Assembly (NCBI GenBank): GCA_017649605.1
Contig: JAGCGL010000060.1
Span: 15,459 to 79,458, forward strand
Direction: 5' to 3'
DNA length: 64,000 bases
Source: Spirochaetia bacterium
Lineage (GTDB): Bacteria; Spirochaetota; Spirochaetia; CADAEX01
Numbering within the stretch: position 1 is the first letter of the stretch; each line of letters begins with the position of its first letter. Below are positions 8,772 to 64,000 of the stretch, piece by piece. Under the pieces are notes generated by a model that was not told the DNA's origin, searched no databases, and saw only the letters and a list, made by a program, of their open reading frames with translations. The position numbers were made by a program, and so were the translations under genes.

Positions 8772-9530
8772 TTAAAAGCCGATTATAATCTTGGCAAGAA
8801 GCAGGGCCAGCACAACTATGATGATGGGTCTTACAACCTTGACCCCCTTGGTGAGCACAAGCCCTGCGCCAAGATAATTTCCAAGCATATTCGAAAGTGC
8901 GGCGGCAATTCCGACTGTTATAAGCACCTGCCCATGAAGCAGGAATACAGTCAGCGCCGCCACATTTGTTGACAGGTTTATAACCTTTGCATTTGCATTG
9001 GCCTGGGCTATGCTGAGCCTGGCTCCCACAGTGAATGCTATGATCAGGAAGGTCCCGGTCCCTGGGCCATACATTCCATCATAAATCCCGATCAATAAAG
9101 CGCAGATTGAGGCCACCACAATATTATGTGTTGTGATGGACACAGAACCGTTGCCATGATCCCTGAACAGTCTTTTATTAAGGACACAGAAGGCAGCAAC
9201 GGGCAGCACCACCAGAAGCATAGCCAGAAGCACCTTCTCCGAGATAACCATGGAGAGCTTGGCTCCTGCCGCAGAACCGACTATGCCGCATATCACGGCA
9301 GGAAGGGCAAGGCGAAGGCTGACCATGCCGCTTTTTATGAAGCGGGCAACTGCGATCACTGTACCGAAGGAAGATGAGAATTTGTTTGTAGCTATGGCGC
9401 TGTGTATAGGAAGCCCCGCCAGAAGATAGGCAGGAAGGGAAATAAGCCCACCGCCCCCTGCTATTGAATCGACAAAACCGGCCAGAAACAGCAGCGGACA
9501 CACGATAAGATATGTGGTTATGGAGATCAC
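8772..9530 (-). CDS. TauE/SafE (TSUP) family anion exporter
   Basis: VDSIAGGGGLISLPAYLL motif. The start is set at GTG 9530, which forms a GTGA overlap with the upstream MFS stop. The longer track ORF (to 9911) overlaps the MFS gene. Confidence 0.8.
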   Translation of the reverse strand: MISITTYLIVCPLLFLAGFVDSIAGGGGLISLPAYLLAGLPIHSAIATNKFSSSFGTVIAVARFIKSGMVSLRLALPAVICGIVGSAAGAKLSMVISEKVLLAMLLVVLPVAAFCVLNKRLFRDHGNGSVSITTHNIVVASICALLIGIYDGMYGPGTGTFLIIAFTVGARLSIAQANANAKVINLSTNVAALTVFLLHGQVLITVGIAAALSNMLGNYLGAGLVLTKGVKVVRPIIIVVLALLLAKIIIGF

Positions 9531-10693
9531 TTCTTTGGCTCCTGGAGGAAGAAGCCGATGACAAAGGTGCAGAACGAGATGGCGGCGCAGATTATGAACA
9601 TCTTTTCGATTCCCCATGCAGCAGCCGCGATGCCCAGTATCAATGGTGATACAGTCTCGGCCCCGTTGTAAAGCACCGAATAGAAGGAGTAGATGCCGTC
9701 TATGTTCACCTTCATCTCCTTGGCAGTGTCGGCCAGGAAGGTGCTCAGCACAGGGACAGTGCCCTTGGAGAGGATTCCCATGAAGATGAGGAGCCCTATA
9801 AGCAAGCAGATATTGCCTGTGAATGCAAGGCTGAATACAGTGAGCGCAAGCAGAAGCTCTGCCGCAAGGAAGACCTTCTTTACCCCTTTGAGCTCCACTA
9901 TGCGTCCGCACACCATCTTTCCCAGATAGTTACCTACAAAGAATACGCCGGTGAGGGATCCTATGATGGCTGTGTCAAACCCTTTGGCCTGGAACAGGAA
10001 CGGGAGGAACAGGAAAAGCGAAGCCACCGAGAAGGCATCCAGGAAGATAGCTCCGTAGAGTATCAGAAGCCGCTTTGTGGGGCGGACAAACACTGAATGA
10101 TGCTCCTTCTTCTCCTCCGGGCCGAACTGTGCCACCTCGTTACGGTACCGCCCTGAAAGGAGCACGGCAAGGCCTGCAAACAGAGGGAGGAATGCGTAGA
10201 TGAACGCTGTTGTTCCCCACGAGAGCTTTGCTATCATAAAGGTAAGAAGCGCCGATAGTGCTATGCGCCCTATATCGCCGTTGGCGGTGAAGTTTCCCAT
10301 CTGGGTTCCCAGCTTGGTCTGGCTGGTCTTGGCCACTGCCGAGAATGCTACAGGATGGAACACTCCGAACCCAAGGCTCCCCACCAGGAATGCCAAGAGG
10401 ACCCATGCATAGCTTTTTGCCATGAACATGAGGATGTAGGATGCGAATATGAAGAGAGCCGCATAGCCCAATGTGTGGAAGCTGCCCAGGTATGTGCCCA
10501 GGAATGCGGCCGGGAATGCCAGCACAACGCCTGAGAAGTGGAGTATGCCGCCCAGGAAGCCGGCCTGCGACAGCGTTATGTTGATGTCCTGTGTGATGAA
10601 TGGAAGAAAGAGCGGCAGACAGGCCACATAGCCGTCGTTGACCATGTGGAGCGCCGAAAGGACAAAGCCGTCTGTCAGCAGTCTCTTCCTCAT
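9527..10693 (-). CDS. MFS transporter
   Basis: 12-TM-like hydrophobic profile. The start is at MRKRLL (ATG 10693), which forms an ATGA overlap with the upstream PP-loop gene stop. Confidence 0.8.
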   Translation of the reverse strand: MRKRLLTDGFVLSALHMVNDGYVACLPLFLPFITQDINITLSQAGFLGGILHFSGVVLAFPAAFLGTYLGSFHTLGYAALFIFASYILMFMAKSYAWVLLAFLVGSLGFGVFHPVAFSAVAKTSQTKLGTQMGNFTANGDIGRIALSALLTFMIAKLSWGTTAFIYAFLPLFAGLAVLLSGRYRNEVAQFGPEEKKEHHSVFVRPTKRLLILYGAIFLDAFSVASLFLFLPFLFQAKGFDTAIIGSLTGVFFVGNYLGKMVCGRIVELKGVKKVFLAAELLLALTVFSLAFTGNICLLIGLLIFMGILSKGTVPVLSTFLADTAKEMKVNIDGIYSFYSVLYNGAETVSPLILGIAAAAWGIEKMFIICAAISFCTFVIGFFLQEPKK

Positions 10694-59249: not shown

Positions 59250-59270
59250 AAAAACCTCCCGAAAGGGAGG
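59248..59270 (-). terminator. hairpin with a T-tract on the minus strand, at the left border of the mobile element
   Basis: CCTCCC-GAAA-GGGAGG is preceded on the plus strand by A7, which becomes a T7 tail for leftward transcripts. It may also stop tcdA. Confidence 0.6.
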
Positions 59271-59526
59271 CGTTAGGCCCTATAATTTAGGGCTTGTTAT
59301 CACTTGTCTTTAGTTGACTTTGTTCTTCTATATTCTATTATACTCCATTAGGGGGCTTTACGCAATATTTATTTTATTGTTTTTTGTGGTTTTTTATATT
59401 TTTGTTTTGTGTAGTTCTATTTTTGAATGAGTACAATTTTGAGTACAGGTAAACGGCCGCCTCTTATTAATCCCCCAGGGGGACACGTTAGTTAGTTTTA
59501 CTAACTAACTATTTTCCAGGTTTGGG

Positions 59527-59738
59527 GAAATATCGTTAATCCGATTTTTTGCAATTATCGATCTTTTGAATTTTCGATCATACCGATTTTTGCGTATTTT
59601 CGACAATTTGATTTTTGCGGAAAGTCGTTAATCCCGTTTTTTCTGAATTGTCGTTAATTCGGATTTTTGCGAAATGTCGTTAATCTGAAATTTTGCCGAT
59701 TGTCGATAATTTCACTTTTTGCGAAATGTCGTTAATTG
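59527..59738. repeat. tandem array of about nine imperfect 24-26-nt repeats, approximate consensus AAWTGTCGTTAATYNGRATTTTTGCG
   Basis: The units start at 59528, 59553 (truncated), 59571, 59595, 59620, 59646, 59672, 59698 and 59724 (partial). The last five are in exact 26-nt register, and the last one overlaps the TerS stop codon. Confidence 0.85.
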
Positions 59739-60181
59739 TTTATTTCAACATTAGGATCATTTTCAAGATCTTCTAATGTCATTGGGGTAAATACAATCCT
59801 TAGTGGTTCATCTTCTCCGTTGAGGATTTCCTCTTTATAAAGTCCGTGTATTCTTATAAGCATATCTAACGCCCTGGTTCTGGTGTAATTATCTCTTGCT
59901 TGTCCAGTCTTTTGGCCTTTATAAATTATATCACTATTGGCGGCCAACAGTTCATTAAGGCAAGAAAAAACCCTGTCCACATTAAGGTTGTAAAGATCCA
60001 TGCGGTCTTGGTCTGATAGCTTCTCCCTTGCCCTCTTGAAAAATTTATAGGCATTGGCGGCGGCGGTTGCCTGGCTTGCCCTCGGGTGTGTTTCTCTATA
60101 GGCTTCCACGTCTGTTTTACCAGCAAGGACAAGCCGCAAGGCTTCTCCCTCTATAGGTGTAAGTTTTTCTATATGCTCCAT
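59732..60181 (-). CDS. phage terminase small subunit-like protein (Terminase_2-type pattern)
   Basis: 149 aa. LTPIEGEALRLVLAGKTDVEAYRETHP...ATAAANAYKFFKR...VDRVFSCLNELL...RTRALDMLIRIHGLYKEE follows the TerS pattern as I remember it. No large terminase gene lies nearby. Confidence 0.55.
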   Translation of the reverse strand: MEHIEKLTPIEGEALRLVLAGKTDVEAYRETHPRASQATAAANAYKFFKRAREKLSDQDRMDLYNLNVDRVFSCLNELLAANSDIIYKGQKTGQARDNYTRTRALDMLIRIHGLYKEEILNGEDEPLRIVFTPMTLEDLENDPNVEINN

Positions 60182-60293
60182 AATTCAACCATACCTCACT
60201 TTATAAGAAAGTCATAAAGGAACATCAAAAAGCCTTGCGGCGTTGCTCTGTGCAATTCCTCGCCGCCCAGGGGCCAAAATCACTATAAAGGTA

Positions 60294-60704
60294 ATGGATA
60301 TTGGGAACAATCAAAAATTACTTAACTACCAGAATGAGTATTTAGCTACGGGTTCACAAAGTGCCTGGGCTTCCCTCTGGCTACTTTCTCTTGAAATCTG
60401 TAAAAATATCATCTGGGGAGAGATTAAAAGAAAAGGTATCTTTCTTTCTGAAATGGATTTTGAAGATAAGGTACATAATGCGGTGTTGTATGTATTGAGA
60501 AGATACAAGACACGGCCAGGGTATCGCATAGAAAAAGCATTTATAACGGCTCTTGCCATGGGCTGCAAACATTCTCTCTATTATCAAACAATGGAGAGCA
60601 AAATTTATAATGCTGCTATTCGTCTGGGAGATCCAAAGAATTCTTGGATTTCAACTGATAAGGTCATAGATATAAAAGATTTTGACTTCTCTCTTTATAA
60701 GTAA
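60294..60704 (+). CDS. hypothetical protein; the only plus-strand gene of the element
   Basis: 136 aa counted from ATG 60294 (the track ORF starts at TTG 60243). I recognise no family confidently. Confidence 0.45.
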   Translation: MDIGNNQKLLNYQNEYLATGSQSAWASLWLLSLEICKNIIWGEIKRKGIFLSEMDFEDKVHNAVLYVLRRYKTRPGYRIEKAFITALAMGCKHSLYYQTMESKIYNAAIRLGDPKNSWISTDKVIDIKDFDFSLYK

Positions 60705-60759
60705 ATAATAGGCTCTTTAGCATTACTTAGACAGAACAAAACATTAGCATTACAGTAAC

Positions 60760-60794
60760 TTGTCAAGGCAAAACCTTAACATTTGCCTTGACAA
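60760..60794. repeat. perfect 13-bp inverted repeat between convergent genes
   Basis: TTGTCAAGGCAAA-ACCTTAACA-TTTGCCTTGACAA. Confidence 0.8.
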
Positions 60795-60796
60795 TT

Positions 60797-60820
60797 ACAT
60801 ATACATATACATATACATAC
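60797..60820. repeat. hexanucleotide microsatellite (ACATAT)n, about 4 units
   Basis: ACATATACATATACATATACATAC read directly. Confidence 0.85.
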
Positions 60821-60849
60821 TAACCATTGTTAACGGGCGTTATCGGTTG

Positions 60850-61245
60850 TTATCGCTCGTCAGGCGGTATATATTGATACTTAGCCCCCTGTCTGTTTGC
60901 TCTTGCCTGTAGTCTTGCCGCCGCCCATTTTTTATAATTTATCATGGTGTCTTTTTTTACTTTTTGCCATAATTTATTTAATGGTCTGGCAGCTTCTCCA
61001 TAACTTGAAAAGTCTGGATCTTCAAAGTTTTCTTTATCGCTTGATCTGTCATAATCTCTTAGAGCAAAAAGGAGCTTTGCTACCCCTGGGCTTTCTCCTA
61101 TGAATTCTTCTAAAAGGTCGGTGTAGTCATGCCGTAATAGCATGGCTTCCTTGTCCTGGGCGTATGCAGCCAAAACCTCGCCAGGCACTTTTTCAATATC
61201 GATCTTTCCCGTTTCTCGGTCAAGCCACTCTCTCTGTATAATCAC
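60850..61245 (-). CDS. hypothetical protein
   Basis: 131-aa ORF with a 4-nt overlap to the upstream ORF. No family recognised. Confidence 0.5.
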   Translation of the reverse strand: MIIQREWLDRETGKIDIEKVPGEVLAAYAQDKEAMLLRHDYTDLLEEFIGESPGVAKLLFALRDYDRSSDKENFEDPDFSSYGEAARPLNKLWQKVKKDTMINYKKWAAARLQARANRQGAKYQYIPPDER

Positions 61246-61706
61246 AACATAGCCTCTATATCTTTCAACCAGCCCTTAAAGATTTCCTCTGCCCGTTTCT
61301 GTCTTTGATAGTAGAAAATAACATCTAGCAACATACAATCTTTAGACAACTGAACAAGTACAAGATAATTATTAGTATTCCCAAAACCCCTAAATTGGCC
61401 GTCTTTGCATTGAATTAAGGATAAACCCAGGAAACGCCGCTGGCGTTCAAAATCAAGAGAATATGGCATATCTGCAAGCCCTGTTTCCCTAAGGATTAAA
61501 TACTCTTGGCCCTTGTACTTGCCTTCTCGGTACTTGCTGGGAAAAGCTGGTACAGGTTTCCCCTCGTAACATTGCAAGATATAAACCCCTGTTTCCTCGA
61601 TATGTTTGAAATGGTAAATACTATCGGGCAAGTATGATTTTACTATTGCTTCCCCTGGCTGGGGTTCTCCTTTCATCTTGTTCATTAAATCATCAAGCCC
61701 CGCCAT
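61242..61706 (-). CDS. hypothetical protein
   Basis: 154-aa ORF coupled to its neighbours. No family recognised. Confidence 0.5.
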   Translation of the reverse strand: MAGLDDLMNKMKGEPQPGEAIVKSYLPDSIYHFKHIEETGVYILQCYEGKPVPAFPSKYREGKYKGQEYLILRETGLADMPYSLDFERQRRFLGLSLIQCKDGQFRGFGNTNNYLVLVQLSKDCMLLDVIFYYQRQKRAEEIFKGWLKDIEAML

Positions 61707-61863
61707 GCTCCCCCCTCTCTATTAACATATTTATAGGTTCTAGTAGTTCCTTTGCCCTGATAATAATTTCTTTAGGGGTCAAGGCGGCGTTGTCGCTTTC
61801 TTCAATCATCTTTTCCAGGTTGTGTTTTATCTCTTTTAGTTCGTCAAGGTCTGATTTTGTCAT
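61693..61863 (-). CDS. hypothetical small protein (56 aa)
   Basis: Not in the track. An ATGA overlap joins it to the Xis-like gene. Hand translation is MTKSDLDELKEIKHNLEKMIEESDNAALTPKEIIIRAKELLEPINMLIERGEHGGA. Confidence 0.4.
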   Translation of the reverse strand: MTKSDLDELKEIKHNLEKMIEESDNAALTPKEIIIRAKELLEPINMLIERGEHGGA

Positions 61864-62039
61864 GCCACTACCTCTCTTGAATTGCTCTTGATCCAGGCTT
61901 CAATATCCTCTTCTTTAAAGCGAATACGCCGCCCCACTTTCACACATGGCAACTTTCCAGCGTTGACATACTGGTACACAGTTGAAATCTTAACCTGTAA
62001 AGCTGCTGCAACTTCCCCTACTGATAACAATTTAATCAT
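61860..62039 (-). CDS. excisionase/AlpA-type helix-turn-helix DNA-binding protein
   Basis: Not in the track (59 aa). Hand translation is MIKLLSVGEVAAALQVKISTVYQYVNAGKLPCVKVGRRIRFKEEDIEAWIKSNSREVVA, which has the classic excisionase-family HTH pattern. SD AAGGGG lies upstream. Confidence 0.7.
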   Translation of the reverse strand: MIKLLSVGEVAAALQVKISTVYQYVNAGKLPCVKVGRRIRFKEEDIEAWIKSNSREVVA

Positions 62040-62250
62040 GTTATACCCCTTGTAATTAAGTTTCTTTGAAAGATTTTCATTGTCTTTCAGTTGACACCTT
62101 TAATCTAAAGTTGGTTGATACTTTTAACAATTTCAGAAATATTTAGGGTCGGTGGGTAAACTATCAGAAAAAAATGGTATGCTTTTGCGTACTTTGCCGA
62201 TTTTATGGGATAAAAAGACTATCAGAATTATTAATAAAAAAACAGAAATA

Positions 62251-62808
62251 TTATACTAGCCAGATAAGAATATTTCCAAATTCTTGCTTTAAGTTCTCCA
62301 ACGTCCCTTTGGTTGCCCTAGGGCCGCCAGTAGTGTGTTTCATAGTTTCACTTTCTAGCCCAAATATATCATCTAGATCGGATAATTTTAAAGGATTTCT
62401 GCCCTTGTTACGTGGTTCTGGTACTGTCTTATATAAATTATAAAATTTACGATATGATAAATTTTCAAGTGATAAACATTTCCTCTTATCATCTATGGTA
62501 ATATAGGAATTTTCATATAAACCACCAAATAATAAAGCAAAAAGCGGCTGCCAGTTTACCAGGTTTTCAAGTTTAGTATAGAGCTCTTCTTTTATATTTC
62601 CAGAAAAGGGCTTTATGCTCTTTAAACAATTATCCTTGGACATAAGGTAGGTTTTTAATAACCCCTTACAATAAAGGGCGTTGCCACCCCATTTCTGGGA
62701 AAAATAATCTATTGCCGCCCATACATCAAGTCCTACTCTCTCCCATAATCCTGTCATTGCTGCATAGCATAAAATTGTGTCTTTCTGATCATCTGTTATT
62801 GTGTTCAT
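62251..62808 (-). CDS. hypothetical protein
   Basis: 185-aa ORF with a 4-nt overlap to the upstream ORF. It is AT-rich and matches no family I recognise. Confidence 0.5.
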   Translation of the reverse strand: MNTITDDQKDTILCYAAMTGLWERVGLDVWAAIDYFSQKWGGNALYCKGLLKTYLMSKDNCLKSIKPFSGNIKEELYTKLENLVNWQPLFALLFGGLYENSYITIDDKRKCLSLENLSYRKFYNLYKTVPEPRNKGRNPLKLSDLDDIFGLESETMKHTTGGPRATKGTLENLKQEFGNILIWLV

Positions 62809-63287
62809 TGCTTCCCCCTCTCTGTTGCAAGAGCAATTACCGCCTTTTCTGTTCCCCTGTTAATCCATTCGTCCAGGTTTACAAGCATATGCTTGCGGCC
62901 TGTCTTTTCTTTTATATAACCTACAAGCTGATTATTAAATAAACGCTCTATATCTCTGAACATACGGGGTGGCATTAAGAATAACATTTTGCAAAGTGCA
63001 GCCCTTTCCCCTGGGCCTTTGTTTTCTCCCTCTATCTTTGGAGGCCAGGGCGGCGGCGTCAATGGGTCTTTATCGGCCCAAAAATCCAGGGGGAATTTAT
63101 CATTGGGCATATGTCCTGTTATATCCCGTATATGGCAATCCAGGCATAAATTAATATAACTATCTATTCTAATAAATATTTCTTTAGGGGCAAGAAACAA
63201 GGCCTTGCAAAGTGCTATTCTTCGCTTGATATGTTTATCTGACATCTTGGCCTGGCGGCGTTCTGTATCTGTTATAGTTTCAAGCAT
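62805..63287 (-). CDS. hypothetical protein with an internal duplication
   Basis: 160 aa. Two copies of an ALCK-LFL-P---F--I motif are present. It overlaps the integrase stop by 8 nt, and GGGGG lies 6 nt before the ATG. Confidence 0.5.
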   Translation of the reverse strand: MLETITDTERRQAKMSDKHIKRRIALCKALFLAPKEIFIRIDSYINLCLDCHIRDITGHMPNDKFPLDFWADKDPLTPPPWPPKIEGENKGPGERAALCKMLFLMPPRMFRDIERLFNNQLVGYIKEKTGRKHMLVNLDEWINRGTEKAVIALATERGKQ

Positions 63288-64000
63288 AGCAACCCCCTAT
63301 AATTGCCCTCTGTACTCCAGTAATCTCTAATAAATCGCCACTTGTGAAATGGGTGTATCTGTCTGTCATTCTTTCGTCTGCATGGCCTGTAATGGCTCTT
63401 ATTTTGGCTTCTGATACATTGCCAGCCCTTAACATTGTGTTGTAGAAGTGCCGCCAACTGTGGAAACATAAATTGCGGCGGCGGCGTTCATCTTCTGAAA
63501 TTCCCATTGCCTTAAGTGCATAGTAAAGGCCGCCCTCTTCTATTTGATAAACTGGCATGGGTGCTTGGCCGTCAAGGGAGAATATAAACCCCTCTGGTGT
63601 CGGTGCTATTTCAACCAGCATAGTTTTTATTTCATCTGTTACAGGTATAGGGCGGCTCTTGTGGTTCTTTGTGTCTTTAAGTCCAAAACTGCTCATGCTA
63701 TGCTCTACGTTCAAAAACCAGCCCTGTTTATCCTGTCTTATGTCTACACCTCTCAACGCCCTAACCTCGTTTAACCTCATGCCCGAAACGGCAGAAAGAA
63801 AATTTGCAGCATAGGCCAGGCGGTTGCCTTTCCAGTATATATTTATATTCTTTGGGTTAAAAAGTTCGCTTGCCTCTGCTGGGTCAAGTATGCCTCTTTC
63901 CTCGGGGCGGTCAATAAAAGGCTTTACAAGCCGCCCAGGGTTCGCCGCTAAATATCCTTGCTCTACTGCATAATCAAGCATAATATTTAAAAAAATCCTG
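63280..64000 (-). CDS. tyrosine recombinase/phage integrase, catalytic domain; the N-terminus lies outside the window
   Basis: Motifs seen are RLNEVRALR (Arg), HSWRHFYNT (HxxR) and GHADERMTDRYTH (His/Tyr). The reading frame stays open upstream of M at 63981 to the window edge. Confidence 0.8.
   Translation of the reverse strand, partial: RIFLNIMLDYAVEQGYLAANPGRLVKPFIDRPEERGILDPAEASELFNPKNINIYWKGNRLAYAANFLSAVSGMRLNEVRALRGVDIRQDKQGWFLNVEHSMSSFGLKDTKNHKSRPIPVTDEIKTMLVEIAPTPEGFIFSLDGQAPMPVYQIEEGGLYYALKAMGISEDERRRRNLCFHSWRHFYNTMLRAGNVSEAKIRAITGHADERMTDRYTHFTSGDLLEITGVQRAIIGGCYA

Follow-up and report, generated by a model that had tools for sequence, protein, structure and literature searches.

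The right-hand end of a 64,000-nucleotide stretch of DNA from an uncultured rumen Spirochaetia bacterium (assembly GCA_017649605.1, contig JAGCGL010000060.1, positions 15,459 to 79,458; this whole stretch is hereafter the window) combines genes for an integrase and a possible small terminase (TerS) with no gene for a virion. What kind of element is such a segment—the remnant of a prophage, a plasmid-like island or a satellite that travels in the capsids of a helper phage? An earlier note on this DNA had proposed the last of these, reading positions 59271-64000 as an integrase, excisionase and TerS satellite following the logic of phage-inducible chromosomal islands (PICIs). In our analysis, the segment is an intact, tRNA-targeting integrative mobile element that is polymorphic in the population, and on balance we lean towards a minimalist phage satellite that its own TerS directs into capsids. 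That it depends on a helper phage and is encapsidated is something we infer from the gene content, and the link proposed in the note between TerS and an adjacent packaging (pac) site was weakened; for these two reasons, the original interpretation was supported in part.

A mobile element at tRNA-Arg(TCT) and its small-terminase homolog

The element is 5,304 bp long and runs from position 59273 to window-equivalent position 64586, the window edge cutting through it. Window-equivalent coordinates denote positions beyond 64000, read on the 227-kb metagenome contig that contains the window (L001; ENA ERZ28653446 scaffold_37); L numbers designate the contigs or loci compared, and P numbers the proteins related to TerS. 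It encodes an integrase, a regulator resembling excisionases, a diverged small terminase and six proteins of unknown function, and the target site is the 3' end of tRNA-Arg(TCT), with the insertion point lying between tcdA and an MFS transporter gene. The features that define the element are as follows.

59273..59282, unstranded: left att core TTAGGCCCTA, 10 bp, one copy at each junction in occupied sites
Window-equivalent 64577-64586, unstranded: right att core TTAGGCCCTA, within the tRNA-Arg(TCT) 3' end, 586 nt past the window edge
59283..59447, unstranded: AT-rich attP arm, ending at 59428-59447 in a putative arm-type site made of two tandem heptamers, TGAGTACAATTTTGAGTACA
59732..60181, minus strand: terS, 149 aa, diverged Terminase_2 / phrog_51 type by transitive profile evidence and genomic context
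61860..62039, minus strand: HTH_17 excisionase / AlpA-like regulator, 59 aa (PF12728 E 2.7e-18; TIGR01764 E 1.6e-14; phrog_66 E 7e-14)
63280..64000, minus strand: tyrosine integrase gene int, window part, C-terminal 240 codons (PF00589 E 4.6e-11; phrog_1 E 1.3e-29)

The case for a mobile element rests on its junctions and on their empty counterparts. The two copies of the 10-bp core are 5,304 bp apart. In the empty sites of L008 and L009—contigs from other samples whose TcdA protein is identical to that of the window—the element is absent and a single TTAGGCCCTA copy lies between the tcdA-side terminator hairpin and the tRNA. Moreover, four metagenome-assembled genomes of sister species (uncultured rumen Spirochaetia, TcdA 85-95% identical) are empty at exactly the same point, and copies of the element on four other contigs, from several samples, are 99.9-100% identical. 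Rumen samples with the element include SAMN15830195, SAMN15830190, SAMN15830150 and SRR12529104, and SAMEA7016614 has the sister element. Base composition also sets the insertion apart, the G+C content being 39.8% within the element vs 46.2% in the part of the window on its left and 49.5% in the sequence on its right. The predictions of the earlier note held up well at this level: its left boundary (59271) misses the actual junction by no more than 2 nt, the element stops shortly beyond the right window edge as it had expected, a flanking direct repeat (of 10 bp) and presence/absence polymorphism at the site, both of which it had proposed looking for, were found, its claim of lower G+C was borne out, and all the features listed for 59271-64000 were recovered in place, the regulatory gap measuring 211 bp.

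Both element ends also contain an exact direct repeat of the 20-mer TGTACTCAAAATTGTACTCA, a tandem heptamer pair. These copies are 5,024 bp apart and lie 105-146 nt away from the att cores; the second is upstream of int and outside the window (L001 8817-8836). They are probably arm-type integrase sites, and the predicted attP junction sequence contains ...CTTTCGAATATTAGGCCCTATAATTTAGGGCTTG.... The full-length integrase has 383 aa, extends to window-equivalent 64431 (L001 8857-10008) and includes a Phage_int_SAM_3 domain; its start codon is 146 nt from the tRNA-Arg(TCT) 3' end. To the right of int follow tRNA-Arg(TCT) and then the MFS transporter gene, recR, ybaB and dnaX, where structural genes would have pointed to an ordinary prophage according to the note. 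No virion or lysis gene was found within the att-bounded element or its flanks, as judged from Pfam, PHROG and NCBIfam scans and from reading of the flanking genes, and the flanking tRNA was the sole Rfam match.

A side observation concerns the hairpin CCTCCC-GAAA-GGGAGG at 59255-59270. Its T-run is on the minus strand, an orientation suited to ending transcription of tRNA-Arg, and of anything reading through on the minus strand, and not that of tcdA. In empty sites, this hairpin directly follows the tRNA; the insertion places 5.3 kb between the two.

Scans of all nine open reading frames (ORFs) of the element against Pfam, PHROG and NCBIfam, together with a defence scan in PADLOC, matched only int and the HTH_17 protein, and the identification of terS came by a longer route. 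A word-indexed protein search for TerS had found next to nothing, and it took an exhaustive search with HMMER, through 1.84 billion representative proteins, to return 76 relatives of the 149-aa protein. PF03592 (Terminase_2) was matched by 12 of the 75 relatives scanned (best E 2e-16), and the PHROG matches in this set fell to phrog_51 (29), phrog_5334 (6) and phrog_2606 (5)—all of them small-terminase families. Among the intermediates, P0005 (39-40% identical to the query) matches phrog_51 at 2.8e-6, and P0016 matches it at 2e-7 across nearly its full length. A motif, DN.TR..A.ELLAK..G, is conserved in the relatives, and the AlphaFold2 (AF2) model of the element protein (pLDDT 70) features an N-terminal helix-turn-helix (HTH) followed by helices and a hairpin as a short beta region.

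Genomic context carried the assignment further. P0004, the closest relative that is not from the element family, shows 52% identity across 115 aa (pairwise E 1e-43); its gene is directly upstream of a Terminase_3/Terminase_3C large terminase on the phage-like contig L054. Likewise, the gene of P0082 (L011-L013; hhalign probability 96.7%, E 3.6e-10) is upstream of, and overlaps the start of, another Terminase_3 plus Terminase_3C gene, after which comes a 540-aa ORF. We consider the TerS assignment confirmed because relatives sit directly upstream of Terminase_3 large terminases; the 52% identity over almost the full length to a phage terS leaves little room for a changed function. Judged by these homologies, the 149-aa protein is a genuine, diverged orphan small-terminase homolog. 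The assignment made in the earlier note thus failed in direct Pfam, PHROG and NCBIfam searches and stood through intermediates, the hhalign comparison and relatives adjacent to large-terminase (terL) genes; the element's terS would be invisible to standard profiles. On L054, a weak Lipase_3-like protein is encoded two genes upstream of the closest terS (802-1458).

A family of small elements and a tandem array

The element belongs to a family recovered from ruminant gut metagenomes, whose placeable hosts are rumen Spirochaetia. One member, L010, was assembled from another cattle rumen metagenome as a contig of 5,119 bp whose two termini share 55 bp of unique coding sequence; the contig is therefore a circle (5.06 kb) or a head-to-tail tandem. 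Identities to the window element are 69% for Int, 82% for the HTH_17 protein, 43% for ORF154, 38-47% for ORF131, 54% for the opposite-strand ORF and 54% for TerS (the ORFs are listed in the last section). The gene order of L010 is permuted, reading terS-attP-int, and its attP carries a pair of arm sites 281 bp apart vs 280 bp in the reconstructed attP of the window element. L055 has the element type of L010 and departs from the L010 attP sequence just past ATTGGGCATA, as expected for an integrated copy. The L010-type sister element is hence known in two states, one integrated and one circular or tandem, and the layout of its attP is identical to that of the window element.

A search with ORF154 uncovered further subtypes, all of which share int, a small int-adjacent gene, a variable gene, the HTH_17 gene, ORF154 and ORF131. 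Family members target tRNA-Arg(TCT) or tRNA-Leu(GAG), and the 5.1-5.5 kb layout is kept across lineages down to 47% integrase identity and across both tRNA targets. Analogous arm-site pairs with a different heptamer occur in L046 and L041, those of L046 being GTGGGTTCA. The terS gene is carried by the window element, L010, L035, L053 and L055.

Several details vary between subtypes. In the subtypes at tRNA-Leu(GAG), some 52 nt from the 3' part of the tRNA are present in duplicate (L041 57-142 and far end; L043 54-139), compared with just 10 bp in the tRNA-Arg subtypes. In tRNA-Leu subtypes, the slot of ORF185 holds a gene for a 344-374-aa protein (L039 6508-7632; L043 1793-2827) with no Pfam or PHROG match; this is the largest unknown gene of the family and a candidate for a replication function. 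The left end of L049 is arranged differently from the other subtypes: a 102-codon ORF fragment (3-311) has a 4-nt overlap with the int start, in a place where other subtypes have an attP arm or tRNA.

The end of the element that holds terS contains two further features.

59487..59509, unstranded: palindrome with a 10-bp stem, GTTAGTTAGTTTTACTAACTAAC, conserved beside the array in L046
59521..59745, unstranded: tandem array with a 26-nt unit (consensus TTTTGCGAAATGTCGTTAAT and a spacer of 6 nt), about 8.6 copies, super-period 52 nt

Tandem Repeats Finder called the array at 59586-59737 (5.9 copies, score 122), and degenerate copies extend back to 59521; the 20-nt consensus has 5 matches at up to 3 mismatches vs 0 expected. 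A relative of 5.18 kb, represented by L046-L048 and inserted at the same attB of a related species, has no terS by tblastn and profile search and retains a homologous array (unit TCATATTAACGACATTTCGAAAAAAA) and the same palindrome. The array is thus conserved, presumably for a function, and we infer that it serves as a protein-binding platform.

That TerS of the element itself binds the array as its pac site, the DNA winding around a ring of TerS subunits, is possible but doubtful. In its favour, the array abuts terS, whose stop codon lies inside the last array unit, and the array region is 79% identical between the window element and L046 vs 65-71% for coding DNA; moreover, small terminases like those of SPP1 and SF6 recognise bent, repetitive DNA close to the gene that encodes them. 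However, the terS-less L046-L048 keep both array and palindrome, and the array is absent anywhere on the terS-bearing L010 circle and in the 3.4-kb fragment of L055, which also has terS; in these two, an arm-type site follows terS within about 30 nt. Nor was the array motif found in L054, the phage contig with the closest terS. On this comparative evidence, array and terS are not co-inherited, and the pac-site reading is weakened because a terS-less relative has the array and a terS-bearing circle has none: of what the earlier note had suggested, the repeat array next to TerS proved real and its pac role lost ground. The array could instead mimic the pac site of a helper phage, act as a replication origin or provide a platform for another protein of the element. 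Taking its role as a whole, we tentatively place an origin of replication or a binding site for another protein slightly ahead of a pac site, and some different role is unlikely. In L046, 6-8 copies of AATGGG(T), distinct from the arm-type GTGGGTTCA pairs of that contig, flank the array (9496-9615 and 9850-9891) in the place where the window element has terS.

Satellite, episome and remnant readings

If the element is a minimalist satellite, the following life cycle can be proposed. Int and the HTH_17 protein, perhaps with ORF160, would excise the element, probably after infection by, or induction of, a helper phage. Paired with the large terminase (Terminase_3 type) of a helper akin to the L054 phage, its TerS would bring this enzyme to the element DNA and direct headful packaging. 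With a unit of about 5.3 kb, several copies joined in a concatemer would have to be loaded into a capsid of normal size, as in the phage-inducible chromosomal minimalist islands (PICMI) and the virion-encapsidated integrative mobile elements (VEIME). Int would finally reintegrate the element at tRNA-Arg of the new cell. Concatemer packaging of 5-6 kb satellites and satellite-encoded TerS both have precedents (PMC10803314, PMC9618062, PMC10085698).

Several results weigh against this reading. No helper phage was identified, and no replication gene was recognised in the element vs the characterised satellites (PICI, PICMI, P4, PLE), which encode one. IMG/VR viral contigs contained no copy of the element, of TerS or of ORF154, INPHARED phages gave no match by element DNA or TerS protein, and an exact search for the attP junction in JGI metagenomes returned none. 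At the level of the protein, the direct scans gave no Pfam match at E<=1 and no PHROG or NCBIfam match at E<=0.1. Foldseek of the TerS model against the PDB found nothing significant (G20c TerS only at E about 4), and against BFVD, the named top matches were all terminase small subunits, which speaks for the assignment, but at E 0.025-0.2 none is individually significant. At the level of the family, terS is absent from L046-48, L039-41, L043-44 and L049 by tblastn and profile search. Because several subtypes lack it, we regard terS as an accessory, swappable module and not as core, and movement of the family as a whole, by this distribution, does not require it. The second HTH_17 proteins of the terS-less subtypes were considered as TerS candidates and rejected, since they resemble excisionases instead. 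Finally, a tandem insertion or an episome of the plasmid kind could also account for the circular contig.

A TerS scan of JGI metagenomes yielded a 1-kb fragment only, and a scan of GTDB genomes with the TerS alignment yielded no relatives. Three IMG/VR contigs matching the arm-site 20-mer contain no related genes and were dismissed as chance matches. A literature search listed no paper that joins the phrase 'phage satellite' with rumen, Treponema or spirochaete terms.

A rival is a small integrating plasmid-like episome or helper-mobilised island that does not travel in capsids, with the TerS-like protein co-opted as a DNA-binding initiator or regulator at iterons and with ORF154 and ORF131 serving replication or maintenance—a reading we judge unlikely, though not negligible. 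The accessory status of terS would suit it, as would the silence of viral contig collections, the assembly of L010 as a free circle from a bulk metagenome, the core proteins lacking a known fold or family, and an iteron-like array beside a small HTH protein, which resembles plasmid rep-ori modules. However, the separate inheritance of array and terS argues equally against a TerS-iteron initiator pair, and the close, almost full-length match of the 149-aa protein to a phage terS lying upstream of terL favours a terminase. Library scans of the element ORFs disclosed no relaxase, Rep or partition gene, and PLSDB gave no DNA match. A decayed, immobile prophage remnant, left with int, xis and terS after deletion of the structural genes, would likewise account for a gene set in which all three are ordinary prophage genes, but we hold it to be very improbable: both att cores and both arm-type sites are intact, as are all element ORFs, conspecific contigs are empty at the site, the near-identical copies recur across samples, the compact layout is conserved to 47% integrase identity over two tRNA targets, and L010 is a circular relative. 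An anti-phage defence island was also considered and rejected, the only significant PADLOC matches being those of the HTH_17 protein, to the HTH model of mad1 and, with a weaker score, to a model for Type II methyltransferases.

The minimalist satellite packaged through its own TerS therefore stays the interpretation to which we lean. Tests of three outcomes that the earlier note had named as contrary to a satellite—structural genes, failure of the TerS assignment and conservation without flanking repeats—left the idea standing in all three cases. A broader proposal, which we hold more tentatively, is that of an undescribed family of ultra-small (5.1-5.5 kb) satellites without primase or replicase in rumen Spirochaetia, built from int, an int-adjacent gene, the HTH_17 gene, ORF154 and ORF131, and with interchangeable hijack modules at the right end—either an orphan TerS or an iteron-like array. 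If true, these would be the smallest TerS-encoding satellites and, as far as we found, the first in their phylum, extending satellites to Spirochaetota and to the rumen, where the interplay of phage, host and satellite is almost unstudied. A working satellite would then need little beyond integration, excision and a redirected small terminase, and could do without its own replicase. The two conserved proteins with no known fold or family, ORF154 and ORF131, would have to carry the essential function of the family. Sister elements at the same attB that differ in terS and in the 26-nt array would offer a natural experiment on the roles of both.

Compared with characterised systems, the element is most like a cross between a PICMI and a PICI of the Staphylococcus aureus pathogenicity island (SaPI) type, and, for want of a primase, belongs to neither group. 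It resembles PICMI (PMC10803314) in its size of about 5-6 kb—the Vibrio minimalist satellites to which the earlier note had rightly likened it—in gene count and in the co-localisation of int with an AlpA/HTH_17 gene (PF05930/PF12728). Both lack capsid-remodelling and virion genes, their size implying concatemer packaging, and both have a small gene overlapping or abutting int: ORF160 here, likened by position alone to PICMI iolg, which is needed for excision (PMC10803314). However, PICMI are defined by a DUF3987/DUF5906 primase, and no primase or replicase model matched in the element; they insert next to fis in Vibrionaceae, whereas the element occupies tRNA-Arg(TCT), between tcdA and the MFS gene, in Spirochaetia; and they are without TerS (the word 'terminase' is absent from PMC10803314), whereas the element has a TerS homolog.

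With PICIs and SaPIs, the element shares its arrangement: int lies at one extremity, a module for regulation and excision is present, and the opposite extremity has a terS homolog, through which the large terminase of the helper is presumably redirected; tail, holin and portal genes are lacking. SatelliteFinder defines the PICI core as int, regulator, primase-replicase, capsid morphogenesis and terS (PMC10085698), and three of these five components are present here (int, regulator and, remotely, terS), with no primase-replicase and no capsid morphogenesis gene; elements with so few core genes form 'Type C', set aside as unreliable (PMC10085698). The element is also smaller, at 5.3 kb vs a PICI median of 9.5 kb (PMC10085698). 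The limits, gene logic and TerS of the earlier satellite reading stand, and the element is not a PICI.

VEIMEs (PMC9618062) are the closest concept, being small integrative elements, some with a tyrosine integrase, an excisionase and TerS; their TerS is closest to that of co-occurring phages, and they are packaged as concatemers (PMC9618062). They differ in being defined by recovery from virion DNA, whereas the element is known here from sequence, and in their marine habitat and host phylum, the shared gene families being int, xis and TerS only. Finally, the phage small terminases of Terminase_2 (PF03592)/phrog_51 type, paired with Terminase_3, resemble the element's protein in length, in the predicted layout of N-terminal HTH, helices and short beta region (AF2 model), in the conserved motif and in the 52% identity to a phage copy; the element's TerS differs in being an orphan with no adjacent terL and in being too diverged to score directly against a curated model.

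Remaining genes and sequence features

The rest of the element consists of the following features.

60243..60704 (ATG at 60294), plus strand: ORF136/153, opposite-strand ORF, divergent from terS and convergent with ORF131
60760..60794, unstranded: perfect 13-bp inverted repeat, TTGTCAAGGCAAA / TTTGCCTTGACAA, with a 9-nt loop, between the convergent ORF136 and ORF131
60796-60819, unstranded: microsatellite (TACATA)4, directly after the inverted repeat
60850..61245, minus strand: ORF131, family core gene, with homologs after the ORF154 homolog in all eight subtypes examined
61242..61706, minus strand: ORF154, family core gene, coupled, with 17 homolog clusters and constant synteny wherever the context was read
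61693..61863, minus strand: ORF56, small coupled ORF, with small ORFs in the same slot in L046 (48 aa) and L052 (65 aa)
62040..62250, unstranded: intergenic gap of 211 bp, upstream of the HTH_17 operon
62251..62808, minus strand: ORF185, with a 4-nt overlap with ORF160, translationally coupled
62805..63287, minus strand: ORF160, with an 8-nt overlap with int and two copies of a domain of about 50 aa

These ORFs are real genes, because their synteny is conserved across at least eight subtypes. Library scans recognised no primase, Rep, relaxase or partition gene in any subtype, and the largest ORF of the window element other than int encodes 185 aa. ORF154 is predicted by AF2 to form a beta sheet with a C-terminal helix (pLDDT 80.8, pTM 0.75); no PDB fold match was found (best TM 0.41), and a PDB profile search gave no significant match. 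ORF131 had no match in Pfam, PHROG or the PDB. ORF185, ORF160 and ORF136 had no significant family match (Pfam, PHROG, NCBIfam, PADLOC) or PDB profile match.

Conservation among subtypes differs from gene to gene. The HTH_17 protein is 82% identical in L010, and over a 244-nt alignment, which takes in xis and the adjoining part of the gap, the DNA identity to L010 is 77%; the 211-bp gap is presumed to be a promoter/operator region. ORF185 has homologs in L052 (57%), L046 (32%) and, weakly, L010 (28%). ORF160 is 62% identical in L046, and single-domain versions adjoin int in L043 and L039, where the int-adjacent ORFs hold one copy of the motif of the roughly 50-aa domain, RR.ALC.ALFL.P..F.... 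The two-domain form occurs in exactly the two array-bearing subtypes, which would fit ORF160 as the protein bound by the array—a weak association of two cases only. Homologs of ORF136, 54-65% identical, occupy the same position in L010, L035, L046, L052 and L053, the ORF being carried by relatives with terS and also by L046 and L052, and this position alone suggests a regulatory role; a sigma-like protein, suspected from the sequence, found no support in family or PDB searches and was dropped. The 13-bp inverted repeat is probably a bidirectional terminator. Where the window element has (TACATA)4, both L010 and L053 have TATA-rich simple repeats.

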